Shown here in pieces: positions 5,409 to 47,866 of a stretch of DNA of 64,000 bases. Each line of letters begins with the position of its first letter. Position 1 is the stretch's first letter. The stretch is from Escherichia coli. GTDB lineage: Bacteria; Pseudomonadota; Gammaproteobacteria; Enterobacterales; Enterobacteriaceae. The stretch lies in the NCBI RefSeq assembly GCF_044324785.1, contig NZ_CP172128.1; one strand, written 5' to 3'. The position numbers and the translations under genes are program-made. The notes beneath the pieces were generated by a model, which had not been told where the DNA came from, ran no database searches, and was given only the letters and a program-made list of their open reading frames with translations.

Positions 5409-6050
5409 ATGTTCATCAGAGCTTATTTAAGGGCATCGACAGAAGATCAGTTCGCCGATCGGGCAAAAGAGATGCTGGAGCAGTTCGTTCAGGAGCGGGG
5501 GCATAAAATCGCCAGCTACTACCGGGAGAACATCAGCGGCACAAAACTAGACCGCCCGGAACTGGGACGCTTACTGATGGACAGTCATCGCAATGATATC
5601 TTGCTGGTCGAGCAGATAGACCGCCTGACCCGTCTTAGCAACAGTGACTGGATAACGCTGAAAAAGCAGATAGAACAACACGAGTTGCGGATTGTCAGTC
5701 TTGATGTGCCCACATCATGGCAGGCTCTGTCAGATAAAGATCCTTCGCAAGCGGACCCGATCACCCGCACAGTAATAACCGCAATAAATAATATGCTTAT
5801 CGACCTGATGGCTGCAATGTCGCATAAAGACTGGCTGAGTCGTCGTCAACGACAAAAACAGGGAATTGAACGTGCCCATACTTTAGGTAAGTATCGGGGC
5901 AAACAGGCAGATCGGGAACGACATCAGAAAGTAATGTACTACCGGCAGATCAAGAAACTGAGCATCCGTGAAACGGCAGAGGTGACAGGCTATAGTACTT
6001 CCCAAGTTTGTCGCATTCAGGCGCTCTATAAAGAGGTTAAACCTGATTAA
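5409..6050 (+). CDS. serine recombinase (resolvase/invertase family)
   Basis: 213 aa; N-terminal catalytic motif YLRASTEDQ with Ser10; C-terminal HTH region; divergent from tnpA fragment. Confidence 0.7.
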   Translation: MFIRAYLRASTEDQFADRAKEMLEQFVQERGHKIASYYRENISGTKLDRPELGRLLMDSHRNDILLVEQIDRLTRLSNSDWITLKKQIEQHELRIVSLDVPTSWQALSDKDPSQADPITRTVITAINNMLIDLMAAMSHKDWLSRRQRQKQGIERAHTLGKYRGKQADRERHQKVMYYRQIKKLSIRETAEVTGYSTSQVCRIQALYKEVKPD

Positions 6051-6058
6051 AAAATAGC

Positions 6059-6096
6059 CTTAACGTACAATATTTTCCGTTTCCCAAACGGAGCCC
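6059..6096. repeat. Tn21-type 38-bp terminal inverted repeat
   Basis: reverse complement GGGCTCCGTTTGGGAAACGGAAAATATTGTACGTTAAG: GGG outer end, ACGGAAAATA core, TAAG inner end. Confidence 0.55.
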
Positions 6097-6579
6097 AAGA
6101 AGACGGCCGGCGGGCGGAATACGGCACGCTACCTGGGTCGTTATCTGAAGAAGCCACCAATAGCGGCTTCCCGGCTGGCACATTACAACGGAGGGGCGAG
6201 CCTGAGCTTCCGTTACCTGGACCACAAAACGGGAGAGACAGCGACGGAAACGCTGACGCAGCGTGAGCTGGTCGCGAGGATGAAACAGCACATCCCGGAG
6301 AAGTTTTTTAAGATGGTGAGGTACTTCGGGTTCCTTGCCAACCGGGGGTGTGGAGAGAAGCTGCCGCAGGTGTACCGAGCTCTGGGGATGGATAAACCGG
6401 AACCGGTGGCGAAAGTGTGCTATGCACAAATGGTGAAACAGTTCCTGAGTCGTGACCCGTTCGAATGCGTGCTGTGTGGCAGCCGGATGGTATACCGCCG
6501 GGCCCTTGCGGGGCTGAATGTATCAGGGCTGAAGAAAAACGCGCGGGATATCAGTCTGCTGAGGTATGTGCCGGCCTGA
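6097..6579 (+). pseudogene. IS91-family transposase, C-terminal fragment
   Basis: in-frame translation ...YLGRYLKKPPIAASRLAHYNG...VRYFGFLANRG... resembles IS91-family transposase C-termini; 5' part replaced by the Tn21-type IR. Confidence 0.5.
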
Positions 6580-7309
6580 TACAGGGTAAGTGTGTCAGCA
6601 ATCCGGGGAAAGGATAAAAAACCCCATCCGCAGTATAAAAACCGACCACGCAGAGAGAAAAAACACCGGCGTGATGTGAAAAACAGCTTACCGCACGAGG
6701 CATAAGACGCGGACAGTGGTATCGCTTAGTTTTTCAATTTCCTATACGTGAACAGACCAATTTTGCATTCGCCGTCCAGGAGTTTGAGGGGAAAGTAGTC
6801 AGTGTTTTACGCTCAGTCAGGGAAAGTGTGCAATGATAAATGACACGAAAGGAATCGTAGCACATGGGCACCGCGATTCAATATTCAAGGAAAACACAAT
6901 ACAGCAATGTACTTGTTCTGTTTCTATTATTCTAGCGATTTCAATAAAGGCACTTGCTCGCGCTCTGTCATTTTCTGAAACTCTTCATGCTGCATTTCGA
7001 TTTTCCTTCTAAGATCATAACTCGCATACCTGTTCTTTTTATGTATATCCATATCTATTTTTGTGACGAGTTCAAACCACAATGTTCGCACTCCCCATGC
7101 AGCGTTATGAAACATTTCCGCAACGGCTAGTCTGTATTAACTGCTTCGGTCATGTAGTCGCTAATACGTTCAGCGGTAATTTTCGTTATTTCATCGTAAT
7201 TCATTTTATCTCCTACAAGATTATTTAATGGAATGAAAAATATCTGGCCTGATAATAATGTTCCAGAATTAATATCTGCAGGCTATGTTAAGTTGTCCCC
7301 ACACACAAT

Positions 7310-15085: not shown

Positions 15086-15853
15086 GGTGATGCTGCCAAC
15101 TTACTGATTTAGTATATGATGGTGTTTTTGAGGTGCTCCAGTGGCTTCTGTTTCTATCAGCTGTCCCTCCTGTTCAGCTACTGACGGGGTGGTGCGTAAC
15201 GGCAAAAGCACCGCCGGACATCAGCGCTATCTCTGCTCTCACTGCCGTAAAACATGGCAACTGCAGTTCACTTACACCGCTTCTCAACCCGGTACGCACC
15301 AGAAAATCATTGATATGGCCATGAATGGCGTTGGATGCCGGGCAACAGCCCGCATTATGGGCGTTGTCCTCAACACGATTTTACGTCACTTAAAAAACTC
15401 AGGCCGCAGTCGGTAACCTCGCGCATACAGCCGGGCAGTGACGTCATCGTCTGCGCGGAAATGGACGAACAGTGGGGCTATGTCGGGGCTAAATCGCGCC
15501 AGCGCTGGCTGTTTTACGCGTATGACAGGCTCCGGAAGACGGTTGTTGCGCACGTATTCGGTGAACGCACTATGGCGACGCTGGGGCGTCTTATGAGCCT
15601 GCTGTCACCCTTTGACGTGGTGATATGGATGACGGATGGCTGGCCGCTGTATGAATCCCGCCTGAAGGGAAAGCTGCACGTAATCAGCAAGCGATATACG
15701 CAGCGAATTGAGCGGCATAACCTGAATCTGAGGCAGCACCTGGCACGGCTGGGACGGAAGTCGCTGTCGTTCTCAAAATCGGTGGAGCTGCATGACAAAG
15801 TCATCGGGCATTATCTGAACATAAAACACTATCAATAAGTTGGAGTCATTACC
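15086..15853 (+). mobile_element. insAB: IS1 copy 1 (insA 15141-15416, insB 15335-15838)
   Basis: 768 bp, ends GGTGATGCTGCCAACTTACTG ... GTTGGAGTCATTACC; no flanking 9-bp duplication. Confidence 0.9.
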
Positions 15854-16048
15854 CGAACTAAAGAGGGGATGGCTGTTGCCCGTTCAAAGGGAAAATTGAA
15901 AGGAAAACAGCCTAAATTATCTGAAAAACAACAAAAAGAACTATGCCGTATGCGTGATACTGGCCAGTACTCTATCAGCGATCTAGCGGAACTATTTACC
16001 GTCTCGCGTGCAACGGTTTATCGAACACTTTCACGAGGACAAAAATGA
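15854..16048 (+). pseudogene. serine resolvase, C-terminal HTH fragment
   Basis: in-frame translation ...GKLKGKQPKLSEKQQKELCRMRDTGQYSISDLAELFTVSRATVYRTL... is a resolvase C-terminal domain; begins at IS1 end. Confidence 0.45.
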
Positions 16049-18673: not shown

Positions 18674-19441
18674 GGTAATGACTCCAACTTATTGATAGTG
18701 TTTTATGTTCAGATAATGCCCGATGACTTTGTCATGCAGCTCCACCGATTTTGAGAACGACAGCGACTTCCGTCCCAGCCGTGCCAGGTGCTGCCTCAGA
18801 TTCAGGTTATGCCGCTCAATTCGCTGCGTATATCGCTTGCTGATTACGTGCAGCTTTCCCTTCAGGCGGGATTCATACAGCGGCCAGCCATCCGTCATCC
18901 ATATCACCACGTCAAAGGGTGACAGCAGGCTCATAAGACGCCCCAGCGTCGCCATAGTGCGTTCACCGAATACGTGCGCAACAACCGTCTTCCGGAGCCT
19001 GTCATACGCGTAAAACAGCCAGCGCTGGCGCGATTTAGCCCCGACATAGCCCCACTGTTCGTCCATTTCCGCGCAGACGATGACGTCACTGCCCGGCTGT
19101 ATGCGCGAGGTTACCGACTGCGGCCTGAGTTTTTTAAGTGACGTAAAATCGTGTTGAGGACAACGCCCATAATGCGGGCTGTTGCCCGGCATCCAACGCC
19201 ATTCATGGCCATATCAATGATTTTCTGGTGCGTACCGGGTTGAGAAGCGGTGTAAGTGAACTGCAGTTGCCATGTTTTACGGCAGTGAGAGCAGAGATAG
19301 CGCTGATGTCCGGCGGTGCTTTTGCCGTTACGCACCACCCCGTCAGTAGCTGAACAGGAGGGACAGCTGATAGAAACAGAAGCCACTGGAGCACCTCAAA
19401 AACACCATCATATACTAAATCAGTAAGTTGGCAGCATCACC
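18674..19441 (-). mobile_element. insAB: IS1 copy 2 (inverted relative to copy 1)
   Basis: 768 bp; insA/insB ORFs identical to copy 1; no flanking duplication. Confidence 0.9.
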
Positions 19442-34763: not shown

Positions 34764-36094
34764 TAGACTGGCCCCCTGAATCTCCAGACAACCAATATCA
34801 CTTAAATAAGTGATAGTCTTAATACTAGTTTTTAGACTAGTCATTGGAGAGCAGATGATTGATGTCTTAGGACCGGAGAAACGCAGACGGCGTACTACAC
34901 AGGAAAAGATCGCTATTGTTCAGCAGAGTTTTGAACCGGGAATGACGGTCTCCCTTGTTGCCCGGCAACACGGTGTGGCAGCCAGCCAGTTATTTCTCTG
35001 GCGCAAGCAATACCAGGAGGGAAGTCTTACTGCTGTGGCCGCAGGAGAGCAGGTCGTTCCTGCCTCTGAACTTGCTGCTGCCATGAAGCAGATTAAAGAA
35101 CTCCAGCGCCTGCTCGGCAAAAAAACGATGGAAAATGAACTCCTTAAAGAAGCCGTTGAATACGGGCGTGCAAAAAAGTGGATAGCGCACGCGCCCTTAT
35201 TGCCCGGGGATGGGGAGTAAGCTTAGTCAGCCGTTGTCTCCGGGTGTCGCGTGCGCAGTTGCACGTAATTCTCAGACGAACCGATGACTGGAAAGATGGT
35301 CGCCGCAGCCGTCACTCAGATGATACGGATGTGCTTCTCCGTATACACCATGTTATCGGAGAGCTGCCCACGTATGGTTATCGTCGGGTATGGGCGCTGC
35401 TTCGCAGACAGGCCGAACTTGATGGTATGCCTGCGATCAATGCCAAACGTGTTTACCGGATCATGCGCCAGAATGCGCTGTTGCTTGAGCGAAAAACCGC
35501 TGTACCGCCATCGAAACGGGCACATACTGGCAAAGTGGCCGTGAAAGAAAGCAATCAACGATGGTGCTCTGACGGGTTCGAGTTCCGCTGTGATAACGGA
35601 GAAAAACTGCGAGTCACGTTCGCGCTGGACTGCTGTGACCGTGAGGCACTGCACTGGGCAGTCACTACGGGCGGCTTCGACAGTGAAACAGTACAGGACG
35701 TCATGCTGGGAGCGGTGGAACGCCGCTTCGGCAACGAGCTTCCGGCGTCTCCAGTAGAGTGGCTGACGGATAATGGTTCATGCTACCGGGCTAATGAAAC
35801 ACGGCAGTTTGCCCGGATGTTGGGGCTTGAACCGAAGAACACGGCGGTGCGGAGTCCGGAGAGTAACGGCATAGCAGAGAGCTTCGTGAAAACGATAAAG
35901 CGTGACTACATCAGTATCATGCCTAAACCAGACGGGTTAACGGCAGCAAAGAACCTTGCAGAGGCGTTCGAGCATTATAACGAATGGCATCCGCATAGTG
36001 CACTGGGTTATCGCTCGCCACGGGAATATCTGCGGCAGCAGGCCAGTAATGGGTTAAGTGATAACAGGTGTCTGGAAATATAGGGGCAAATCCA
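34764..36094 (+). mobile_element. IS2 copy 2
   Basis: ORFs identical to copy 1; 5-bp target duplication CCTGT on both sides. Confidence 0.9.
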
Positions 36095-36722
36095 CCTGTG
36101 TATCCGGATATTTGAAATGGATCTTCCAGAAGCGGACTCGGGTAGTATCTTCATGGTTTGGCTTTCAGCAGATCTGTGACTCTGCTATTTATTGATGAAT
36201 ATGACCTTTACAATTCCAGTTATTGTTCTGATTGCAATAATCACTTCATCACAATAATCCACCATTTTTTGTGATTATCTGGCAATAATTTTCTTTTCTG
36301 CTCCAGAGATCCGAAAACTCCTGGTTCCGGATCCGCGGATCCTTCGCTGCCGCCCGCTGGTCCGCTTTCACAGGATGTGGTGTCCCGCTCCGCTGACATG
36401 ACACTGTATGTTGTGTTTCTTCCCGTGTTCCCGAGCCAGTCATCAGCGGCAGAAAAGATCGCTTCGCTTATTCACTGATCCTGATTCACTTCCGGAAAAT
36501 CCTGAATCCGATAAAAATCGGATCATAGAAAAACAGTCATCCTGTAATTTATCATAGTTACTACATTGCAGGTTATTATTGTCATGATTACTTTTCAGGT
36601 CAGTTATTGATGGTGGTGTTAATAATAGCTGGATAACAATATTCCGTTGCCGGAGGCATGTTATAGCGTAATACTGGTGTATACTTAATGGTGTACAGAG
36701 AGTATGTAAGATGAGGTGCATT

Positions 36723-37248
<526 letters not shown>

Positions 37249-38058
37249 ATGTCAGGCTCCGTTATACACAGCCAGTCTGCAGCCATGGTACCGGCAGTGT
37301 ATTCTGCCGGACAGTCTGCACAACTTCCTGTTGCCATTGATTATCCGGCAGCTCTGGCACTCCGCCAGATGTCGATGGTTCATGATGAACTGCCGAAATA
37401 TCTGCTGGCTCCCGAGGTGAGTGCCCTGCTTCATTATGTCCCGGATCTGCGCCGCAAGATGCTGCTGGCCACTCTGTGGAACACCGGCGCGCGTATTAAT
37501 GAAGCACTAGCGCTGACGCGGGGGGATTTTTCGCTCACGCCTCCGTATCCGTTTGTGCAGCTGGCCACTCTGAAGCAGCGGACAGAAAAAGCCGCCAGGA
37601 GGGCAGGAAGGATGCCCGCCGGTCAGCAGACTCACCGTCTGGTTCCGCTCTCCGACGCCTGGTACGTCAGCCAGCTGCAGACGATGGTGGCCACACTGAA
37701 AATCCCCATGGAACGGCGTAATAAACGAACAGGCAGGACAGAGAAAGCGCGGATCTGGGAAGTGACGGACAGAACGGTCAGGACCTGGATTGGGGAGGCG
37801 GTTGCCGCCGCTGCTGCTGACGGTGTGACGTTCTCTGTTCCGGTCACACCACATACGTTCCGCCATTCCTATGCGATGCACATGCTGTATGCCGGTATAC
37901 CGCTGAAAGTTCTGCAAAGCCTGATGGGACATAAGTCCATCAGTTCAACGGAAGTCTACACGAAGGTTTTTGCGCTGGATGTGGCTGCCCGGCACCGGGT
38001 GCAGTTTGCGATGCCTGAGTCCGATGCGGTCACAATGCTGAAAAACAGACATGTATAA
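37249..38058 (+). CDS. resD: ResD tyrosine site-specific recombinase (F-plasmid D protein type)
   Basis: 269 aa; tyrosine recombinase C-terminal motifs (HTFRHSYAMHML, GHKSISSTEVYTKV); immediately downstream of ccdB as in F. Confidence 0.8.
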   Translation: MSGSVIHSQSAAMVPAVYSAGQSAQLPVAIDYPAALALRQMSMVHDELPKYLLAPEVSALLHYVPDLRRKMLLATLWNTGARINEALALTRGDFSLTPPYPFVQLATLKQRTEKAARRAGRMPAGQQTHRLVPLSDAWYVSQLQTMVATLKIPMERRNKRTGRTEKARIWEVTDRTVRTWIGEAVAAAAADGVTFSVPVTPHTFRHSYAMHMLYAGIPLKVLQSLMGHKSISSTEVYTKVFALDVAARHRVQFAMPESDAVTMLKNRHV

Positions 38059-38230
38059 TAAGTCACAATTATGAATTGTGATTTCTTCTATAAAAAAGAG
38101 ACCACTGCAATATGTGATCTCTTGTATTATTTCATAATTGTTAAAGCCACTTCACATTATGCTCACATTGTACGGATATATTCGTAATGTTTTTTTATAT
38201 CGAATGAACGACAGAAGTTGTGGAGATTTT

Positions 38231-38584
38231 ATGAAAGTAATTAGCATGAAATTTATTTTTATTTTAACGATTATTGCTCTTGCTGCTGTTTTTTTCTGGT
38301 CTGAAGATAAAGGTCCGGCATGCTATCAGGTCAGCGATGAACAGGCCAGAACGTTTGTAAAAAATGATTACCTGCAAAGAATGAAACGCTGGGACAACGA
38401 TGTACAACTTCTTGGTACAGAAATCCCGAAAATTACATGGGAAAAGATTGAGAGAAGTTTAACAGATGTTGAAGATGAAAAAACACTTCTTGTCCCATTT
38501 AAAGCTGAAGGCCCGGAGGGTAAGAGAATGTATTATGGCATGTACCATTGTGAGGAGGGATATGTTGAATATGCGAATGACTAA
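38231..38584 (+). CDS. cmi: colicin M immunity protein
   Basis: 117 aa with N-terminal membrane anchor; convergent with and adjacent to cma. Confidence 0.7.
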   Translation: MKVISMKFIFILTIIALAAVFFWSEDKGPACYQVSDEQARTFVKNDYLQRMKRWDNDVQLLGTEIPKITWEKIERSLTDVEDEKTLLVPFKAEGPEGKRMYYGMYHCEEGYVEYAND

Positions 38585-38633
38585 TACACTGTTATAAAGG
38601 CTGCATAAAAATGCCGGAACCCCGGCCCTTATA

Positions 38634-39449
38634 TTATCGCTTACCACTTTCTTTAATGTGAATTTCACCAGGAAGCAGTATCTGGTACTCTTTACCAGAA
38701 AACATCGCCCCGAGCCTTGTGAGCGACTCTCCGATAATGCCACGGTGAGTGCTGGCGTTAAAATCATATTTATCATCATATGAACGAACAACGCCATTGT
38801 AAATCCAGGAGCCATTGGCAGAGATAGTTAAAGTACCTTCTGTTTTCAGTGTGATATTACCAAGATATGCACCGGTAATAACATTATAATCACCAGTGGC
38901 ATGTGTGAACTTTGTAGAAACAGGGAATGTACCTACTACACCAGATTTTATAATGTCTTTTATCTGATTAATTTTCATAGGGGAAATTTTAAGACCAATG
39001 TTGGCGATATTAACGCTCCTTTCAGCGCCATTACCCCATAAATAGTGAGCAAGCGCCACAATTGGTGTAGTGACATTACCGCTCATTTGTTTCATATTCA
39101 TTGAGCGATAGTCATATTGACTTGGCGCTGGTTTTGCGAAGTGGTAAGCGTCATAAACGCTTATTCCAGGGTGAAGAACCAGATTTCGGTCGGCGTTACA
39201 GAAGTAACCAATATTTGTCGATATGATCTGCAATGTGAGAGGGTTGCTGGCCCCATGTTTTTTGATGTAATCCTCAAGTTGAGTTAAAGCCTGAAGACAC
39301 ATGTTTGGACTCTGGAAAAAACTATAAACAACCTGGACTAAAAGAGGGCCAGCACCAGGCACATGTGGTGCTGAAAGAGAAAATGCACCATTGCCATAAC
39401 TTGGTAAGTTAGTTGATGGTGATGGTGCATGAACAGTTAAGGTTTCCAT
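38634..39449 (-). CDS. cma: colicin M (lipid II-cleaving bacteriocin)
   Basis: 271 aa from METLTVHAPSPSTNLPSYGNGAFSL.. to ..EIHIKESGKR matches colicin M. Confidence 0.85.
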   Translation of the reverse strand: METLTVHAPSPSTNLPSYGNGAFSLSAPHVPGAGPLLVQVVYSFFQSPNMCLQALTQLEDYIKKHGASNPLTLQIISTNIGYFCNADRNLVLHPGISVYDAYHFAKPAPSQYDYRSMNMKQMSGNVTTPIVALAHYLWGNGAERSVNIANIGLKISPMKINQIKDIIKSGVVGTFPVSTKFTHATGDYNVITGAYLGNITLKTEGTLTISANGSWIYNGVVRSYDDKYDFNASTHRGIIGESLTRLGAMFSGKEYQILLPGEIHIKESGKR

Positions 39450-39690
39450 ACATAACTCCTTATAAGTTAACAAGATAACAGAGTTCGCCGCTGGCTAACG
39501 CCTCCGCCGGCGAACAAACCCCATGAGAGAGGCTCCCCATAACATTGTTTGCCTGATATGCCGTTAAAAATGGTAGGGCAGCTCCTGAACTACCATATAT
39601 AAGATATATATCTGTACACTCCATTAAATACTGGAAATATATTGAGAACTCTGATATATAATCTATATATAAAATACAAAAGGTATATAT

Positions 39691-40218
39691 ATGACCAGCA
39701 ATAAAGATAAGAACAAGAAAGCAAACGAAATATTATATGCATTTTTCATAATCGGGATTATTCCATTAATGGCTATATTAATACTTCGAATAAATGATCC
39801 ATATTCTCAAGTACTGTACTACTTATATAATAAGGTGGCATTTCTCCCTTCTATTACATCATTGCATGATCCCGTCATGACAACACTTATGTCAAACTAC
39901 AACAAGACAGCACCAGTTATGGGTATTCTCGTTTTTCTTTGCACATATAAGACAAGAGAAATCATAAAGCCAGTAACAAGAAAACTTGTTGTGCAATCCT
40001 GTTTCTGGGGGCCCGTTTTTTATGCCATTCTGATTTATATCACACTGTTCTATAATCTGGAACTAACAACAGCAGGTGGTTTTTTTAAATTATTATCTCA
40101 TAATGTCATCACTCTGTTTATTTTATATTGCTCCATTTACTTTACTGTTTTAACCATGACATATGCGATTTTACTGATGCCATTGCTTGTCATTAAATAT
40201 TTTAAAGGGAGGCAGTAA
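39691..40218 (+). CDS. cbi: colicin B immunity protein
   Basis: 175-aa polytopic membrane protein located between cba and cma on the opposite strand. Confidence 0.7.
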   Translation: MTSNKDKNKKANEILYAFFIIGIIPLMAILILRINDPYSQVLYYLYNKVAFLPSITSLHDPVMTTLMSNYNKTAPVMGILVFLCTYKTREIIKPVTRKLVVQSCFWGPVFYAILIYITLFYNLELTTAGGFFKLLSHNVITLFILYCSIYFTVLTMTYAILLMPLLVIKYFKGRQ

Positions 40219-40235
40219 CACTGCCTTCCTTTTAA

Positions 40236-40891
40236 TTATTTTATGATCTTGTGATTCAGCTCATCAACAAATTTATCATCGATAAATGCACCAATAGCAC
40301 CTGCAATAACTACGCCAACAAAACCAACAACTGTGGCCGAAAGACCAAAGGCTATAAGGGCCGAGCCTAATGTCAAAGAAAACAAACTAAGAGCTACAGC
40401 AGATGCCATCCCACTGATAACCCAGGACTCGACTTCCAGCATTAATGGCCCCCAGTTACCAGTCTGGTAACCCTCAATACTCTTCTCCCTGATGTTGTTT
40501 GCCTTTATTGCATAATCTGCTGCTTTGAACGTTTTACCCAACGCAGCAAATTTATTCCCCATATCCTCAGCATTAAATGCTTTCCACGCATTCACAATGG
40601 CTTCTTTGTCCGTTGCATTTATTTTAAGGCTGGGGTTAGCCATTAACTTATTAATGGAAGACATTGCATCATCATAACTACGAATCGTTTTTCCCTGAAA
40701 ATTATTTATATTCTCTGCAATTTCACGGGAAAGCGCCTTGTATTTATCTCCAAGATATTCCCCGACTTTGTCACCGACACTAATGATGACCTCGCTGGTT
40801 TTTGTCAGGACCGTCTTCTCGTCATTTTCTTGTTCTTTCTTGACTCTGAAGTCATCCTTTGCGTTATTTTCGGCTTCCTGGCGCTGGCTTA
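40236..40891 (-). pseudogene. cba: colicin B, C-terminal pore-forming part (gene split by IS1)
   Basis: hydrophobic helical hairpin of pore-forming colicins; reading frame continues upstream to the IS1 end. Confidence 0.8.
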
Positions 40892-40900
40892 AACTATTAC

Positions 40901-41668
40901 GGTGATGCTGCCAACTTACTGATTTAGTGTATGATGGTGTTTTTGAGGTGCTCCAGTGGCTTCTGTTTCTATCAGCTGTCCCTCCTGTTCAGCTACTGAC
41001 GGGGTGGTGCGTAACGGCAAAAGCACCGCCGGACATCAGCGCTATCTCTGCTCTCACTGCCGTAAAACATGGCAACTGCAGTTCACTTACACCGCTTCTC
41101 AACCCGGTACGCACCAGAAAATCATTGATATGGCCATGAATGGCGTTGGATGCCGGGCAACAGCCCGCATTATGGGCGTTGGCCTCAACACGATTTTACG
41201 TCACTTAAAAAACTCAGGCCGCAGTCGGTAACCTCGCGCATACAGCCGGGCAGTGACGTCATCGTCTGCGCGGAAATGGACGAACAGTGGGGCTATGTCG
41301 GGGCTAAATCGCGCCAGCGCTGGCTGTTTTACGCGTATGACAGGCTCCGGAAGACGGTTGTTGCGCACGTATTCGGTGAACGCACTATGGCGACGCTGGG
41401 GCGTCTTATGAGCCTGCTGTCACCCTTTGACGTGGTGATATGGATGACGGATGGCTGGCCGCTGTATGAATCCCGCCTGAAGGGAAAGCTGCACGTAATC
41501 AGCAAGCGATATACGCAGCGAATTGAGCGGCATAACCTGAATCTGAGGCAGCACCTGGCACGGCTGGGACGGAAGTCGCTGTCGTTCTCAAAATCGGTGG
41601 AGCTGCATGACAAAGTCATCGGGCATTATCTGAACATAAAACACTATCAATAAGTTGGAGTCATTACC
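40901..41668 (+). mobile_element. insAB: IS1 copy 3, inserted in cba
   Basis: 768 bp; 9-bp target duplication AACTATTAC (40892-40900 and 41669-41677); minor aa differences from copies 1/2. Confidence 0.9.
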
Positions 41669-42548
41669 AACTATTACTGTCCAGAATCTCCACGGCTGAA
41701 ATATATAGCGGAGAAACTCCACTGCCTTCAGGAAAACGGACAATGACATCATGATTATTACTGGACATCGTATAACCAGCCTCAACATAATTCCCTGTCT
41801 CAGAAATAACGCCATCTTCCTGGATTTCGGGATTAGACCGAACTGGAGTATTCATCTGACCCACACTTAATACCAGGTCCGGTAGATTTGGTGATACAGG
41901 GGCACTGTAAACATCTTTAATATTGGTTCCCGGACGACTCCGGTCCGGAACTGGAACGGCATCCACTACTGGCACTGTCATCGGAATACCTCCGATAATA
42001 GCCATATATTGTGTACCATTCTGCATAAGGTCCGTCAGACGATATTTTACCGGTACATTATTACCCGCTGCTGGTAACTGGCTGGCAGGGATATCCGTTA
42101 CCTGCTCCAGTTGCTGTGTAACCATAAGACGAATAATTTTTTGCTCATTTCCGGAAGCAGGCTCCAGACGGGCAAAAGAAACAGCAGCCGGGCGAGACGG
42201 TTCTGGCAAACCACCACGTAAACCATTTTCAAGAACTGTTCGTGCAGCGGAAACTTTCTCGTTTCCCCAGGGGCTATGCACACTGACAGACCATCCCGAC
42301 CAGTCTCCCTCTTCAAGTTCCTTATCAAGAATAATCCGGCGAATAATTCCAGGAAAAAGAACACTTTGTACAAGTGCGATACCTTGTGGGCTGTAATCCC
42401 CCCATCCCGGAGGCATGGATGGAGCGAGACCTGATGAGCCTCCGGGTTTCACATCACCGCCCGGAATTCGTCCTGTTGACGGCCACACAACCATTGTGTC
42501 CCCGTAATCAATACCTTCTGTCGGTACACTACCTTCATTATCACTCAT
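41669..42548 (-). pseudogene. cba: colicin B, N-terminal translocation/receptor part (gene split by IS1)
   Basis: MSDNEGSVPTEGIDYGDTMVVWPSTGRIPGG..; the two parts minus one duplication copy sum to 1536 bp (511 codons + stop). Confidence 0.8.
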
Positions 42549-42592
42549 AGAAAACCTCTTTGACTTTAAAAACAATCAATTAAAATTAAATA

Positions 42593-42622
42593 CTGTACAT
42601 ATAACCACTGGTTTTATGTACA
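42593..42622. promoter_or_regulatory. overlapping dual LexA (SOS) operator of colicin promoter
   Basis: CTGTACATATAACCACTGGTTTTATGTACAG, the tandem-overlapping SOS-box architecture of colicin promoters, ~45-75 bp upstream of cba start. Confidence 0.7.
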
Positions 42623-42759
42623 GATCAAAAATTACGCCGCTGTGTTTTCTCTGTCAAGACTGTGGATTTCAATTTTTGTGAAAACGATCAAAAAACAGGC
42701 ACTCACACCACGTGCTATTCTCGCCTGATACCACAAAAAACTGCACAAGCATTACTGGT

Positions 42760-43222
42760 CAGGACGGCAGGAAGAATGCCCGCCGGCCAGCAGACTCACC
42801 GGCTGGTTCCGCTCTCGGACTCCTGGTACGTCAGCCAGCTGCAGACGATAGTGGCCACACTGAAAATCCCCATGGAACGGCGTAATAAACGAACAGGCAG
42901 GACAGAGAAAGCGCGGATCTGGGAAGTGACGGACAGAACGGTCAGTACCTGGATTGGGGAAGCGGTTGCCGCCGCTGCCGCTGATGGTGTGACGTTCTCT
43001 GCCCCGGTCACGCCACATACGTTCCGCCATTCCTATACGATGCACATGCTGTATGCCGGTATACCGCTGAAGGTCCTGCAGAGCCTGATGGGGCATAAGT
43101 CCATCAGCTCAACGGAAGTCTACACGAAGGTGTTTGCGCTGGATGTGGCTGCCCGGCACCGGGTGCAGTTTTCGATGCCTGAGTCCGATGCGGTCACAAT
43201 GCTGAAAAACAGACACGCATAA
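42760..43222 (+). pseudogene. resD paralog, 3' fragment (~155 codons)
   Basis: ~90% identical to 37590-38058 including downstream 70 bp; 5' part absent. Confidence 0.65.
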
Positions 43223-43358
43223 TTCATAAATCATAATTATGAATTGTGATTTATTCTGTAAAAAAGAGACCACTGCAATATGTGATCTCTTGTATGCAAG
43301 GGGGCTTAAACAGTATGAATTCACAAGTGTGATTTCATAAGTAATAACTTTTTGATTA

Positions 43359-43634
43359 TTATGTTAGTGTTTTTAAGTATTGCTCAAGGGCTACTCTGAC
43401 GATGGCACTTACATTTTTTGGATCTTTACCATTGCGTTTATTCCTCAATGCCAGATCTTCTATTGTGACAAGCATGCTTTCACCAAGAGAGATTGTCGTC
43501 CGACATTGTTTTTCTGGTTCGGTTTTTTCCGGCGCGCCGTATGGTTTATCCGCAAGGCGCTGAGCCAGAGCCTCTGCTTGTTCTACCGTAACTGCAGCTC
43601 TGTTTAATGCTTGCTGGCTGGGTTTCTTCACCAT
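43359..43634 (-). CDS. ParG-like RHH partition/centromere-binding protein
   Basis: 91 aa with C-terminal ribbon-helix-helix-like segment; immediately downstream of ParA-type ATPase. Confidence 0.5.
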   Translation of the reverse strand: MVKKPSQQALNRAAVTVEQAEALAQRLADKPYGAPEKTEPEKQCRTTISLGESMLVTIEDLALRNKRNGKDPKNVSAIVRVALEQYLKTLT

Positions 43635-44272
43635 GGGCCAAATACCTCATTCATTAAATGTTCAATTTCTGCTTTGGCTGCTGTATTGTTCGTTTCTACT
43701 ACACCGGTGCCGTTGCTCATGCAATCGCGATAGACTTTTCTGAAACAAATAACTGAATCCAGAACTTGAATTGTTGGGAATTCTTCAAGATATTCAAGGA
43801 ATTCTTTTCTCTCATTTCCCCTCAAAACCGGATTGGTTGTTGCCATACTTTGTAAACAATAAACCTTAAGTTCCGGGTTAAGGTTACGCATTGCGTCTAT
43901 CTGTTGTTCTAGTTCTGTAAGAGTATCCAGGTCTGGTTGAGAACACTGTAGTGGCGCAATTATTTGATGTGCGACAACTCCACTCGTTATGAATTCCTTT
44001 GAGTTTCTTCCTGCGACATCCACTATTACATCATCGAACTTTTCATTCAGAGCCTGTAGTGTTTGTGTCAGATTATCAAATTTCTCAACAAGAGTTATTG
44101 CTGGTAAAAGTCCTGCAGCTTCTCGTTCCGCATGATGTTTTGCGGCTGTTCGTTGTAGATCTCCGTTTAACAGGCAGACTTCCCTTCCTTTATTTGCGAG
44201 AGCAATAGCCAGGTTTGATGCAATGGTAGTTTTCCCTGAACCACCTTTGTTCCCACCAACTACAGTAATCAT
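43628..44272 (-). CDS. small ParA/ParF-type partition ATPase
   Basis: 214 aa, deviant Walker A GGNKGGSGKTT; type Ib size. Confidence 0.7.
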   Translation of the reverse strand: MITVVGGNKGGSGKTTIASNLAIALANKGREVCLLNGDLQRTAAKHHAEREAAGLLPAITLVEKFDNLTQTLQALNEKFDDVIVDVAGRNSKEFITSGVVAHQIIAPLQCSQPDLDTLTELEQQIDAMRNLNPELKVYCLQSMATTNPVLRGNERKEFLEYLEEFPTIQVLDSVICFRKVYRDCMSNGTGVVETNNTAAKAEIEHLMNEVFGPW

Positions 44273-44500
44273 TGCAACCTCATAAATGTGATGTGTGAAG
44301 TATGATGATATTTTGACACGGTAACCTGAGGTGTCAATATGCGTTCATATTTATGAAGTATGAAACATGAAGTGTTTCATATGATGTAATAAATAATACT
44401 TGTGTTTTGTGATTTCATAACTATGATAGTACTCAAATTGAGTATTACCTTGCAACCAGAAACAGTGATTTACTCAGATTGAGTATTTAAGGGGCTATAG
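44273..44500. promoter_or_regulatory. shared divergent promoter / candidate centromere region
   Basis: AT-rich; direct repeats ACTCA(A/G)ATTGAGTATT x2 and TGAAGTATGA-type repeats between the two divergent partition operons. Confidence 0.45.
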
Positions 44501-45472
44501 ATGAACGTATACTGCGATGATGGTTCAACAACAATCAAGTTGGCATGGAATGACAATGGGAAAATCAGTAAGTCGTTGTCGCAAAACTCATTTCGTCATG
44601 GATGGAAGGTTGACGGGTTAGGGATTCGCCAGACATTTAACTATGAACTGGATGGTAAAAAATACACGTATGATGAAGTTAGCAACCAATCTATTCTTAC
44701 GACTCATATTGAGTATCAATATACGGATGTTAACCTGTTAGCTGTGCATCACGCTTTACTGAATAGTGGATTAGTGCCTCAGCCTGTATCATTGACTGTG
44801 ACTTTGCCTATCAGTGAGTTCTACACGAAAGAGTGTCAAAAAAATGAACTCAACATTCAGCGTAAAATTGAGAATTTAATGAGGCCGATTCGTCTTAATA
44901 AAGGCGATGTTTTCACCATTGAACACGTTGATGTGATGCCTGAATCATTGCCAGCTGTGTTTTCTCGTCTGGTCATGGATAAAGTTGGTCAGTTCGAAAA
45001 ATCGCTGGTAGTTGATATTGGCGGCACTACGCTTGATGTTGGTGTTATCGTTGGTCAATTTGACTCTGTAAGTGCCATTCATGGTAATTCTGGCATTGGT
45101 GTGTCTTCAGTTACGAAAGCTGCAATGAGTGCATTGCGCATGGCATCCAGTGATACCAGTTTCCTCGTTGCAGATGAATTGATTAAACGTCGTAATGACC
45201 CGGACTTTGTTCGGCAGGTTATAAATGACGAAACAAAAACTGATCTGGTCCTTAATACCATTGAGGGGGCTATTGCCAGTCTGGGGGAGCAAGTAGTCAA
45301 TGAGCTCGGTGATTTTCATCATGTGAATCGTGTTTATGTTGTCGGTGGTGGGGCACCGTTGATCTATGATTCGATAAAAACGGCATGGCACCATCTTGGG
45401 CAAAAAGTAGTGATGATGGAGTCGCCACAGACAGCACTGGTTGAAGCTATCGCGGCTTTCAAAGAGGAGTAA
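44501..45472 (+). CDS. stbA: StbA/ParM actin-like partition ATPase
   Basis: 323 aa, ParM-like N-terminus (VYCDDGSTTIKLAW) and actin-fold phosphate motifs (DIGGTTLD). Confidence 0.8.
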   Translation: MNVYCDDGSTTIKLAWNDNGKISKSLSQNSFRHGWKVDGLGIRQTFNYELDGKKYTYDEVSNQSILTTHIEYQYTDVNLLAVHHALLNSGLVPQPVSLTVTLPISEFYTKECQKNELNIQRKIENLMRPIRLNKGDVFTIEHVDVMPESLPAVFSRLVMDKVGQFEKSLVVDIGGTTLDVGVIVGQFDSVSAIHGNSGIGVSSVTKAAMSALRMASSDTSFLVADELIKRRNDPDFVRQVINDETKTDLVLNTIEGAIASLGEQVVNELGDFHHVNRVYVVGGGAPLIYDSIKTAWHHLGQKVVMMESPQTALVEAIAAFKEE

Positions 45473-45476
45473 TATT

Positions 45477-45869
45477 GTGGACGATGAACGGAAAAGGAAA
45501 AAATTCACACTTTATCTGCATCCGGAAAAAGCTGCAGACTTTCAAACTTTGGAAGCGATAGAGTCCGTTCCGCGTTCTGAGCGTGGTGAGCTGTTCCGGA
45601 ATGCATTTATTTCTGGAATGGCGTTACACCAACTTGATCCTCGCCTGCCTGTATTGCTGACTGCCATTTTGAGCGAGGAGTTTTCAGCAGATCAGGTTGT
45701 AACCTTACTCAGTCAGACGACTGGATGGAAGCCTTCTCAGGCCGATATCAGAGCTGTGTTGACTGAACTCGGTGCTTCGCAATCTGCTGAAAAAATGCCT
45801 CCTTCTGCTACTGATTCGGTGCAGGAGGCAATGAATGATGTGCGCCTTAAAATGCAAAAATTATTCTGA
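45477..45869 (+). CDS. stbB: StbB/ParR-like partition adaptor
   Basis: small ORF after stbA; GTG start at 45477 proposed (ORF-track ATG at 45441 overlaps stbA). Confidence 0.55.
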   Translation: MDDERKRKKFTLYLHPEKAADFQTLEAIESVPRSERGELFRNAFISGMALHQLDPRLPVLLTAILSEEFSADQVVTLLSQTTGWKPSQADIRAVLTELGASQSAEKMPPSATDSVQEAMNDVRLKMQKLF

Positions 45870-45873
45870 TATA

Positions 45874-47145
45874 TCAGAATGAAGCAATGGGGATCTCAGT
45901 CCATTGTGTTGTATACGAAGGCGAGAGCATTTCCCGTTTCATTTGCCATTCAGGGGCGGTTCCTCGCCCCGCAAACCACACTTTCCCTTTTCCCGACTGG
46001 TTCAGTTCATCGAGTGTTTTCATTAACTTTTCACTGTTTTTACGGGGCTGGATTTCATCAAATAATCCCGGCTGCGCTATACCCGATGGTGTGAAATCAG
46101 CCAGCATGACTCCTGCCTTCATATAGCGGTACCCTTCACGCCAGACATGGTTTAAGGCTCTGCATGCGGCGGCAATAATGTCCCGGCTGTCCTGTGTGGG
46201 CAATGGAAGCTTTTCCACAGCGGCATTGCTGTAACAGGGTTCTTTTACTGCAAAGGGGGATGTCCGTACAAATGTCGTCACCTGCCGGCAATACTGACGC
46301 TCCCCACGTAGTTTCTCTGCGGCCCGCTCTGCATACTGAACAACAGCCTGGTGCATGGCATCTTTGTCTGTGATTCGTTCACCAAAACTGCGACTACAGA
46401 CAATCTGCTGTTTTGCCGGTGGTGCTTCTTCCAGGGATATGCAGGACTCGCCGTTGAGTTCGCGTACCGTACGCTCAAGAATGACGCTGAAGTTTTTCCG
46501 GATGAATGCCGTGTTAGCCTGCGCCAGCTGCAGTGCTGTGTTAATACCCAGCGCATTCAGCTTTTCCGTCAGTCTGCGTCCTACTCCCCAGACCTCACCA
46601 ACTGGCTGCAGTCCCAGTAGCTTCAAGATCCGATTACGGTTTTCTGCCGTCAGCGCGACCACACCGGAAAACTGTGGCCATTGCTTTGTTGCCCACTGTG
46701 CACTTTTAGCCAGCGTTTTTGTAGGCGCAATGCCCACCCCCATGGTGAGTCCTGTCCAGCTCTTTACCTGTTCCCTGAGCTGATGACCAAAAAACTCCGG
46801 AGAGATGCAATGATTTATCCCCCGCAAATCAATAAACATTTCATCAATTGAGTAGGGCTCAACTGCGGGAGAAAGCGACTCCAGAACAGCCATGACCCGT
46901 TGGCTCATGCTGTGGTACAGCGCATAATTGCTGGAAAATACATGTATTTTCTTCTCCAGGCGCATCTGTCTCACCTGAAACCAGGGCTGCCCCATTCTGA
47001 TGCCAAGGGCTTTTGCCTCCGGGCTGCGCGCGATCACACAGCCATCGTTATTGCTGAGTACGATGACCGGTTCGTTGCGAAGGTCCGGGCGGAAAACTTT
47101 TTCACATGAGGCGTAGAAACTGTTGATATCAGCCAGTGCAAACAT
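45874..47145 (-). CDS. impB: translesion DNA polymerase V catalytic subunit (UmuC/ImpB family)
   Basis: 423 aa Y-family polymerase (MFALADINSFYASCE..., SIDEMF). Confidence 0.85.
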   Translation of the reverse strand: MFALADINSFYASCEKVFRPDLRNEPVIVLSNNDGCVIARSPEAKALGIRMGQPWFQVRQMRLEKKIHVFSSNYALYHSMSQRVMAVLESLSPAVEPYSIDEMFIDLRGINHCISPEFFGHQLREQVKSWTGLTMGVGIAPTKTLAKSAQWATKQWPQFSGVVALTAENRNRILKLLGLQPVGEVWGVGRRLTEKLNALGINTALQLAQANTAFIRKNFSVILERTVRELNGESCISLEEAPPAKQQIVCSRSFGERITDKDAMHQAVVQYAERAAEKLRGERQYCRQVTTFVRTSPFAVKEPCYSNAAVEKLPLPTQDSRDIIAAACRALNHVWREGYRYMKAGVMLADFTPSGIAQPGLFDEIQPRKNSEKLMKTLDELNQSGKGKVWFAGRGTAPEWQMKREMLSPSYTTQWTEIPIASF

Positions 47146-47582
47146 CAGCGTAACTCCCGCGTCCTGTGTATCACGTGAGTGACAACACCAAAAATACAGA
47201 TGTTTTCCGGATACAGTGTGCGGAACTCCGGGCTGTCTGAAACCGGCTCCAGTGCCGGGCGTGGGCGCAACAGCAGTCGTTTGACGGTGAACTCACCGTC
47301 GATCTCAGCGATAACGATGTCCCCGTGTTGTGGTTTTTCGGCCCTGTCCACTACCAGCAGATCACCATTCTGCACGCCAGCCTGGTTCATCGATTCACCG
47401 CTGGCGCGCAGAAAGAAGGTGGCTGCAGGTCTGCTGATGCAATAGCTGTTCAGATCCAGTTCCTGCTCAGCATAATCAGTGGCAGGCGAAGGAAAACCGG
47501 CCTGGCAACGATCGGCAAACAACGGTCGCACGTAACTGTCATCGCCTGAAGGGTCAGCCGGACGGTGATAAACGGTACTCAT
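47145..47582 (-). CDS. impA: UmuD/ImpA-like self-cleaving SOS protein
   Basis: 145 aa, S24 peptidase (LexA-like) domain with Ser/Lys dyad region (ASGESM ... FTVKRL). Confidence 0.8.
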   Translation of the reverse strand: MSTVYHRPADPSGDDSYVRPLFADRCQAGFPSPATDYAEQELDLNSYCISRPAATFFLRASGESMNQAGVQNGDLLVVDRAEKPQHGDIVIAEIDGEFTVKRLLLRPRPALEPVSDSPEFRTLYPENICIFGVVTHVIHRTRELR

Positions 47583-47826
47583 GCTGCAGGCAGCCAGCTG
47601 TCGTCCTGCCAGATTTCTTCCAGCAGAGACAGGATACGTTCTTTATCCTTGTCGTTGCGGGCTCCTGTGACAGATACAGACGGGGCGCTGCCCTGGTCTA
47701 TACGCAGCCAGATTTCCGGGTAGTGTGGTTTCAGACGTTGTTCGATTTCATTCTGTAGCGCCTGAAGTGTGCCTGATTTGAGGTTTTTGTGCTCTGGCGG
47801 TCGAAAAGAATTTCAATGCGGATCAT
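47579..47826 (-). pseudogene. impC: impC-like small ORF with apparent frameshift
   Basis: ATG at 47826 encodes MIRIEILFDRQSTK then stops; a second frame continues to a stop overlapping impA start; frames join at an A/T5 homopolymer near 47783-47787. Confidence 0.45.
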
Positions 47827-47848
47827 GTTCTCATCTCCCTTTTCTATT

Positions 47849-47866
47849 GCTGTATGTATATACAGT
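47849..47866. promoter_or_regulatory. LexA (SOS) box upstream of impCAB
   Basis: GCTGTATGTATATACAGTA, perfect CTGT-N8-ACAG. Confidence 0.75.

Follow-up and report, generated by a model that had tools for sequence, protein, structure and literature searches.

On the F plasmid, rfsF lies upstream of oriV-1 and ccdAB (PMC4398462), and in IncI1 and IncR plasmids rfsF has been described as the swap point for accessory regions (PMC8004404, PMC9412624). A trend by which cba is inactivated, whilst cma and both immunity genes are left intact, is ascribed to Christenson and Gordon (2009; Microbiology 155:1645), as cited in PMC6795089 and PMC8469651. Among the papers searched, none tied resD to colicin B/M.

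The locus described here is contained in a 64,000-nucleotide stretch of Escherichia coli contig NZ_CP172128.1 (hereafter the window), which carries a ccdA-ccdB-resD operon with an upstream rfsF site (Table 1). The toxin-antitoxin genes ccdA and ccdB (36723-37248) open this operon, and a region at approximately 36290-36500 is homologous to the 45.9-kb rfsF/oriV-1 region of the F plasmid. The full-length ResD has the catalytic domain of a ResD-type tyrosine recombinase spanning the protein (Pfam Phage_integrase, residues 51-240, E 2.6e-17). Also present is a ColBM module comprising cba-cbi-cma-cmi, with an SOS-box promoter upstream of an IS1-interrupted cba.

Table 1. Coordinates of features at the ccdAB-resD-colicin BM locus, numbered from the first nucleotide of the window
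Feature	Position	Strand	Basis and remarks
rfsF-like site (GAGATCCGAAAACTCCTGGTTCCGGATC) upstream of ccdA	36306-36333	+	Sole motif match in the window; 0 expected by chance
ccdA	36723-36941	+	ORF; annotation of 100%-identical record NZ_CP100531
ccdB	36943-37248	+	ORF; annotation of 100%-identical record NZ_CP100531
resD, full-length, allele A (269-aa tyrosine recombinase)	37249-38058	+	ORF, Pfam PF00589; annotated site-specific integrase
Repeat copy A (resD nt 348-810 and 69-nt tail)	37596-38127	+	Repeat search, alignments
Hairpin and U-run in copy A tail, predicted intrinsic terminator	38096-38123	-	Terminator scan; -20.6 kcal/mol, z -3.8
cmi, colicin M immunity	38231-38584	+	ORF, annotation
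cma, colicin M, intact	38634-39449	-	ORF, annotation
cbi, colicin B immunity	39691-40218	+	ORF, annotation
cba 3' part (pore-forming domain), severed by IS1	40236-40900	-	ORF 40236-40664; colinear with intact pEC14III cba
IS1 (768 bp) inside cba	40901-41668	+	9-bp target duplication AACTATTAC at 40892-40900 and 41669-41677
cba 5' part	41669-42548	-	ORF; comparison with pEC14III
Overlapping LexA (SOS) boxes of cba promoter, TACTGTACATATAACCACTGGTTTTATGTACAG	42591-42623		Conserved in ColE1-type and klebicin promoters
Illegitimate junction: colicin-upstream DNA (...CATTACTG), GT, resD codon 116 (CAGGACGG...)	42757-42759		Sequence comparison
Repeat copy B: 5'-truncated resD allele B (42760-43222) and tail	42760-43295	+	Repeat search, alignments; continuous with copG-parA backbone
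Same terminator-like hairpin in copy B tail, predicted	43264-43291	-	-19 kcal/mol, z -3.1; 68-95 nt downstream of copG-like stop codon
copG-like gene (43359-43634) and parA-like ATPase gene (43628-44272)	43359-44272	-	ORFs, annotation; native right neighbours of resD allele B

An earlier note on this DNA had reported that the 3' end of resD and adjoining downstream sequence recur in direct orientation either side of the colicin B/M genes, and local alignment bore this out to within 6 nt of the coordinates then proposed (37590-38130 and 42760-43300). Copies A (532 nt) and B (536 nt) were identical at 504 of 532 positions (94.7%) and differed by 28 mismatches and a 4-nt indel that closely follows the resD stop codon, hence the identity of about 90% given in that note was too low; the poor nucleotide alignment that would speak against a repeat was not observed. 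A repeat search returned two direct blocks, 37596-37895 with 42760-43059 (300 nt, 95%) and 38045-38127 with 43213-43295 (83 nt, 88%), which the local alignment merges into a single repeat, and the longest identical stretch between the copies was 95 bp. A MAFFT alignment showed the homology to end abruptly on either side. The match, which comprises the last 463 nt of resD and 69 nt downstream, far exceeds chance expectation for 532 nt at 95% identity within 64 kb, and an assembly artefact is excluded, since other, independently determined complete plasmids show the two-copy structure as well. The cmi, cma, cbi and interrupted cba genes all lie between the copies.

As had also been claimed, the second copy is without the 5' half of resD, the first 347 nt (43%) being missing. 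The predicted product would thus begin at codon 116 and be without the N-terminal 115 residues, including the NTGARINE segment (approximately residues 78-85, the region of the first catalytic arginine), so that the catalytic set is incomplete; the HTFRHSY and EVYTKV motifs are kept. In the pKP1814-3/Shigella lineage, copy B is additionally frameshifted. Copy B is a pseudogene remnant of resD, of which no function is required.

The two copies are not products of the same allele. Over the last ~80 nt of the resD repeat, one tail type was found in all cmi-linked copies and another in copG-linked copies and uninterrupted backbones; the two types differ by eight substitutions and a 4-nt indel, and tail type tracked the flanking DNA in every plasmid examined. 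The repeats are therefore two different resD alleles, and no in-place duplication took place. The copy B allele belongs to a common backbone, ccdAB-resD-copG-parA-parM, with 967 PLSDB records covering at least 80% of copy B together with copG-parA. A comparison with related ccd-resD plasmids free of colicin genes, as the earlier note had proposed, was informative: pSaT040 carries ccdAB, an uninterrupted full resD and then copG-parA, and was 98.5% identical to window positions 42760-47861 but only 94.4% identical to positions 36701-38127. No allele identical to copy B was found, the nearest (CP113093) differing at 13 sites. The resD alleles are strongly mosaic, in that copy A of the window has an F-like patch at approximately 37725-38040 and RCS51_p is an A/T0 hybrid, and because of this the original divergence of copies A and B is beyond reconstruction.

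At the left edge of copy B, DNA immediately upstream of the colicin B SOS promoter is joined to codon 116 of the second resD allele, with 0-2 nt of microhomology, i.e. non-homologously. The same junction was found in all four loci examined, namely those of the window, pCFSAN004176G_02, pKP1814-3 and a Shigella plasmid, and this identity points to a single origin of the join in one event. Window-type (Type-1) junctions were present in 61 PLSDB records, and colBM without a second resD copy (the pEC14III-type junction) in 119. The pEC14III plasmid has the same ccdAB-resD-colBM block and no copy B, its homology with the window stopping at 42760. Beyond this break point it aligns with a ColE1-type plasmid (~150 nt) and with the klebicin plasmid pAAC154 (~45 nt), and the window departs into resD at a point where both of these still match pEC14III. 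As the pEC14III-type DNA past the break point, i.e. native colicin-upstream DNA, is homologous to that of ColE1-type plasmids, the join in the window is the derived state. The junction is accordingly a unique, low-homology one shared by the carriers examined, each flank of which matches a different intact parental arrangement. Only the ~150 nt of promoter-adjacent DNA is shared there between pEC14III and the ColE1-type plasmid; the hypothetical gene right of cba in pEC14III was considered as a homologue of its ColE1 counterpart (exc1 in some records), and was dismissed as the proteins have no similarity (E 2.4). A precise empty site for the pEC14III-type arrangement, with the resD tail joined straight to the pEC14III right flank, was found in none of the records.

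We consider it probable that copy B is the scar of a fusion between segments of two related F-like plasmids, both parents being modelled on present-day relatives. One parent would have been pEC14III-like, with the order rfsF-ccdAB-resD(A)-tail-cmi-cma-cbi-cba followed by ColE1-type colicin-upstream DNA, and the other a very common backbone with the order rfsF-ccdAB-resD(B)-tail-copG-parA-parM-parR-umuCD. A single non-homologous join would have brought codon 116 of resD(B) next to a point that lies ~135 nt from the cba SOS boxes on their upstream side, with loss of the DNA between the two joined points. The product would be ccdAB-resD(A)-colBM-'resD(B)-copG, in which the 463 nt of the resD 3' end and the 69-nt tail are doubled in direct orientation. 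A likely route may have been a cointegrate of both plasmids, arising either by action of ResD at rfsF or by homologous recombination, followed by one illegitimate deletion; homology-anchored illegitimate recombination would be an equivalent route. The earlier suggestion that the module was captured or duplicated by recombination within resD thus holds insofar as one boundary is a breakpoint inside resD that left direct repeats, whilst its duplication in place is contradicted by the two alleles. Capture through resD homology at the copy B edge is likewise at odds with the non-homologous join, and with the presence of the same block in pEC14III types that have no second copy.

An insertion of the colicin module by ResD itself, acting at sites in the repeat ends such as the palindromic 69-nt tail, would accord with the published swapping of accessory regions at rfsF in IncI1 and IncR plasmids (PMC8004404, PMC9412624), with the 8-bp perfect inverted repeat of the tail (TCACAATT-ATG-AATTGTGA) and with the fact that both repeat copies stop at the same base. 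This is nonetheless highly improbable, as the only rfsF-like motif in the window is that upstream of ccdA, the same side on which rfsF lies in F, and none occurs at either end of the repeat. On its left, copy B begins within the coding sequence of resD, where there is no such motif, hence the insert is not flanked at both ends by a recombinase core site as an att-flanked island would be. Core sites of tyrosine recombinases have spacers of 6-8 nt, whereas that of the tail palindrome is 3 nt, and the hairpin in the tail has the form of a terminator on the minus strand. When the ColIb-P9 resD-parA intergenic region and the rfsF/oriV-1 region of F were compared with the tails in the window, homology was confined to the DNA upstream of ccdA. 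To the left of the rfsF-like motif the flanks are unrelated among lineages and to its right they are homologous, so that the site marks where, on the left, the plasmid lineages cease to be homologous; because the repeat ends are without an rfsF site, rfsF exchange accounts only for this left limit of the shared block. Insertion of an IS or transposon with target duplication, or an assembly artefact, is more improbable still. IS1 and IS2 copies are nearby, but each has its own target duplication (9 bp for the IS1 in cba, 5 bp for IS2), no IS termini are present at 38128 or 42757, and no inverted repeats were found in 35000-46000. Moreover, repeats of 532 nt with 5% divergence are unlike short identical target duplications, and 61 complete plasmids recorded independently have the same structure.

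A Campbell-type integration deserves closer consideration, although we regard it as unlikely. Here, a non-replicating 5.16-kb circle ('resD 3' part-tail-cmi-cma-cbi-cba), closed at 42757/42760, would have recombined homologously into the resD of a ccdAB-resD-copG plasmid. This predicts the exact structure, including the A-type tail with cmi and the B-type tail with copG, and a homologous resD that could serve as target is present in approximately 970 PLSDB plasmids. Several backbones (IncFIA/FIB/FIC/FII, and one plasmid typed as IncK2/Z) carry the structure, and copy A has different left flanks in the window and in pKP1814-3. However, making the circle needs the same single illegitimate join, and integration is therefore an added step as opposed to an alternative origin. 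Exchange at rfsF, the point from which the lineages are homologous, accounts for the differing left flanks, and the window has a ccdAB-resD 5' part of the pEC14III (donor) type and not of the recipient type. The excision product was not found in PLSDB or E. coli genomes, the circle junction itself being of a kind not observable in assemblies. By extension, the 5.16-kb unit could be a homology-driven cassette, released by RecA as a circle and re-integrating into resD, though this is more doubtful than the integration alone. If it were so, any of ~1,000 known ccdAB-resD backbone plasmids could receive the cassette, and a plasmid-maintenance gene would be a general landing pad spreading colicin BM and its immunity between replicons.

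Loss of the module by homologous recombination between the repeats had also been anticipated, and RecA-dependent deletion of the ~5.2-kb segment between repeats of 95% identity is plausible given their 95-bp identical run; the deletion product of the window lineage was, however, found in none of 72,556 PLSDB plasmids and 5,426 complete E. coli genomes. The best match in PLSDB to the predicted A x B deletion product was RCS51_p (98.2%), and matches in the E. coli genomes were at most 96.8% identical at full length. RCS51_p was rejected as an excision product, since by its SNP pattern the crossover (37538-37583) falls just short of the repeat, and since it has a 3' part of pSaT040 type, not of copy-B type. 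IS1-linked deletions have taken out the colicin genes of the pKP1814-3/Shigella lineage, which still has both repeats.

The practical value of the finding is in annotation and the bookkeeping of plasmid evolution. Positions 42760-43222 should be annotated as a resD pseudogene remnant and not as a second integrase, and the unique junction is a handy clonal marker by which a single lineage of ColBM-derived segments can be recognised. This lineage has spread over IncF-type plasmids of E. coli, Klebsiella, Shigella and Salmonella, in many cases once the colicin genes had decayed. The case illustrates the mosaicism mediated by the ccdAB-resD region, one side of which undergoes site-specific exchange at rfsF, and the other, within resD, recombination that is either homologous or illegitimate.

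As described for rfsF exchanges of IncI1 and IncR plasmids (Delta/Col gene sets and IncR inserts; PMC8004404, PMC9412624), homology between the lineages compared here begins exactly at the rfsF-like motif left of ccdA, yet the repeat ends in the window are a non-homologous join and a tail, neither of which is an rfsF site. Compared with ColBM plasmids (pColBM-Cl139, pAPEC-O1-ColBM and relatives), the window has the same cmi-cma-cbi-cba order, orientation and SOS promoter upstream of cba, and it follows their trend in that cba is inactive and cma and both immunity genes are intact; its cba is broken by IS1, as against truncation beside a microcin V remnant in those plasmids. The first 50 kb of pAPEC-O1-ColBM is without the colicin region. 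With the ccdAB-resD/rfsF multimer-resolution module of F (D protein), the locus shares operon order, a PF00589 recombinase and an rfsF/oriV-1-like region upstream of ccdA. Shortly ahead of its stop codon (at about 38043), the F resD departs from the two copies in the window, and it is followed by repE, not by the 69-nt tail, and the second window copy is, unlike F resD, a 3' fragment only. The structure is a real but ordinary recombination scar, and neither a novel mechanism nor a novel type of mobile element is revealed by it. Homology-facilitated illegitimate recombination, or deletion within plasmid cointegrates, is a general mechanism; the present case, which by comparison is read from one historical junction, resembles it in having one side in homologous DNA and the other in a join of minimal microhomology, and in the partial duplicate of the anchor gene left behind.

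A repeat scan revealed two colinear direct-repeat blocks that were merged by local alignment into a single repeat, 37596-38127 (copy A) versus 42760-43295 (copy B), bearing out the claim of the earlier note that two direct repeats of the resD 3' end surround the colicin genes. The two copies were identical at 504 of 532 positions (94.7%), with 28 substitutions, identical runs of 95, 43, 39 and 37 bp, and one 4-nt indel directly 3' of the stop codon; a MAFFT alignment demonstrated that the homology ends abruptly at both sides. The repeated sequence corresponds to resD nt 348-810 and 69 nt downstream, copy B being devoid of resD nt 1-347, and the product of full-length resD matched the Pfam Phage_integrase domain over residues 51-240 (E 2.6e-17). 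A perfect 8-bp palindrome with a 3-nt spacer was also present just past the stop codon in both copies, at 38060-38078 (TCACAATT-ATG-AATTGTGA) and 43228-43246 (TCATAATT-ATG-AATTGTGA), and looks like a putative operator or small hairpin.

Coordinates of resD and of the features located between the repeat copies
Feature	Coordinates	Strand	Description
resD	37249-38058		ORF, 269 aa; 3' of ccdA and ccdB
cmi	38231-38584	+	between repeat copies
cma	38634-39449	-	between repeat copies
cbi	39691-40218	+	between repeat copies
cba		-	split by IS1; between repeat copies
IS1 in cba	40901-41668		768 bp; own 9-bp target duplication AACTATTAC

The IS1 insertion has inactivated colicin B, with cbi, cma and cmi remaining intact. 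Misassembly of the repeat region was excluded, since 36500-44500 was found in independent complete plasmids, at 100% identity in pLH10-b-1-A (NZ_CP100531) from a chicken E. coli and at no less than 99.5% identity in seven others. An IS-mediated origin of the repeats was likewise excluded, as both IS1 and IS2 are flanked, at other places, by short target duplications of their own. The IS2 copy (34764-36094; 5-bp target duplication CCTGT) lies approximately 210 bp left of an rfsF-like site, and is missing from the otherwise identical NZ_CP100531 and from pEC14III, a plasmid that carries the colicin B/M genes. Two more IS1 copies, at 15086-15860 and 18674-19441, are in inverted orientation around a gene of the endonuclease/exonuclease/phosphatase family (NZ_CP100531 annotation), and may represent a composite-transposon-like arrangement.

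The sequence across the left boundary of copy B is ...CATTACTG-GT-CAGGACGG..., where pEC14III matches up to ...ACTG and uninterrupted resD matches from CAGGACGG onward; this boundary is a non-homologous join with an ambiguity of at most 1-2 nt. The SOS-box promoter region is common to cba, a ColE1-type plasmid and the Klebsiella klebicin plasmid pAAC154. Past the join, pEC14III can still be aligned with the ColE1-type plasmid for about 150 nt and with pAAC154 for about 45 nt, whilst the window turns into resD. Alignment across the break point thus identifies the pEC14III flank as native colicin-upstream DNA, and hence the join in the window as derived. Exactly the same junction sequence is carried by the window, pCFSAN004176G_02, pKP1814-3 and a Shigella flexneri plasmid, which indicates one historical event, later inherited and spread. 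Over 42560-42757, which holds the cba promoter with its double LexA box and roughly 150 nt upstream, identity to the promoter regions of colicin E1 and klebicin in small ColE1-type plasmids (comparison records L011 and L012, the latter pAAC154) was 82-88%, and the expression region of colicin B therefore shares ancestry with small colicin plasmids.

Three plasmid arrangements were distinguished in PLSDB. An uninterrupted ccdAB-resD-copG-parA-parM-parR-umuCD backbone, as in pSaT040, was represented by 967 records in which copy B plus copG-parA was covered to 80% or more. The arrangement of the window, with truncated resD fused to the promoter region of cba, had its junction in 61 records. The third, typified by pEC14III and with its junction in 119 records, shares the ccdAB-resD-cmi-cma-cbi-cba block with the window as far as 42760, where homology ends; beyond lie a hypothetical gene and then a different parMR pair, with no second resD copy. 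The identity of pSaT040 was 98.5% to 42760-47861 but only 94.4% to 36701-38127, and it follows that copy B is the 3' part of the resD allele of the copG-parA backbone, whereas copy A goes together with the colicin block. A variable-site table of 13 resD copies further revealed that the last ~80 nt were of a single type in all cmi-linked copies and of another type, 8 substitutions and the 4-nt indel apart, in all copG-linked copies, truncated or full length. Two alleles have therefore been brought together, and in-place duplication of the resD end was ruled out. The alleles were otherwise strongly mosaic: at approximately 37725-38040 the full-length resD of the window is F-type at all variable sites, unlike the colBM-linked copies of pEC14III, pKP1814-3 and CP027556, which suggests a later gene conversion; this patch raises the divergence between copies A and B in this plasmid.

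On their right, copy A (at 38127) and copy B (at 43295) both terminate at the base of a hairpin that precedes a minus-strand U-run. The uninterrupted backbone has this hairpin 68-95 nt past the stop codon of the copG-like gene, and it is hence the predicted terminator of a copG-parA operon; its position beside cmi suggests that the colicin block may originally have replaced copG-parA in a similar backbone.

The earlier reading of these repeats as products of recombination held in part, in that the breakpoint does lie within resD and the repeats are a potential substrate for deletion, but homologous capture or duplication gave way to an illegitimate fusion of two alleles, the repeat being an ordinary recombination scar in a mosaic plasmid. 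In the simplest pathway, a cointegrate of a pEC14III-like plasmid and an empty-site plasmid would have formed at rfsF or via homologous recombination, and a single illegitimate deletion, starting immediately upstream of the cba promoter and ending within the resD of the empty-site partner, would have followed; the outcome would be no different with homology-anchored illegitimate recombination. An excised circle that re-integrated in the Campbell manner would likewise yield this structure, but would still need the same original join. Site-specific insertion of the colicin module by ResD at the repeat ends is unlikely, given that the rfsF sites of F are situated upstream of oriV-1 and ccdAB (PMC4398462), that the homologue of the F rfsF/oriV-1 region is at about 36290-36500, and that the conserved motif GAGATCCGAAAACTCCTGGTTCCGGATC was found in the window at 36306-36333 only. 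The components involved (the ColBM cluster, ccdAB-resD/rfsF and an F-like leading-region backbone) are well known; our literature search, which did not reach key ColBM papers, found no description of a resD remnant beside colBM, and an earlier description is possible.

The N-terminal 115 residues, and with them the NTGARINE segment with the first catalytic arginine, are missing from copy B. Its reading frame stays open in the window (truncated ORF at 42662-43222) and in pCFSAN004176G_02 but is frameshifted in the pKP1814-3/Shigella lineage; copy B is a decaying pseudogene. Loss of the colicin module via the repeats would be possible: the identical runs shared by the two copies (up to 95 bp) suffice for deletion by RecA-dependent recombination, at a rate that 5% divergence should lower. 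The predicted deletion product was absent from PLSDB, where RCS51_p (NZ_LT985252) was the sole near match (98.2%), and in 5,426 complete E. coli genomes no full-length match exceeded 96.8%. RCS51_p switches from A-type to pSaT040-type SNPs at 37538-37583, outside the repeat, and its 3' region has the pSaT040 rather than the copy-B type, so it was rejected as an excision product and is instead an inter-plasmid recombinant. Its ccdAB-resD region (5751-7183) is a clean two-parent mosaic, with 0 differences in 884 nt from the copy A sequence over 36700-37583 and 1 difference from pSaT040 beyond. The crossover falls only 13-58 nt from where the truncated copy is broken, a nearness for which coincidence is the sole explanation we can offer.

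Approximately 40 IncF plasmids of E. coli, Klebsiella, Shigella and Salmonella have retained both repeats and lost 38426-41956, comprising most of the colicin genes, by IS1-linked deletions; this extent follows from pKP1814-3 and the Shigella plasmid, in which IS1 at its left-hand position (40897-40901) abuts 41957 on its right. With both repeats kept in these plasmids and no deletion product detected, decay of the module is documented by a route other than loss via the repeats. A cell that lost the module would forfeit both immunity genes whilst neighbours still make colicin M, and such loss should be selected against.

Upstream of ccdA, an rfsF-like inverted-repeat motif, GAGATCCGAAAAC...CGGATC (36306-36333), marks the exact start of inter-lineage homology. 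When its flanks were compared between the window and six comparison records (L002, L004, L005, L007, L014 and L015), the DNA to the left was unrelated among window/pEC14III, pKP1814-3/ColIb-P9, pSaT040, CP027556 and F, whereas the right side was homologous; in pKP1814-3, the left flank is that of ColIb-P9 and the right side is window-like, the two being joined within the motif. ResD-mediated flank exchange would be expected to leave such a pattern. In IncI1 and IncR plasmids rfsF is a published swap point (PMC8004404, PMC9412624), and the start of inter-lineage homology at the rfsF-like motif of the window matches those reports.
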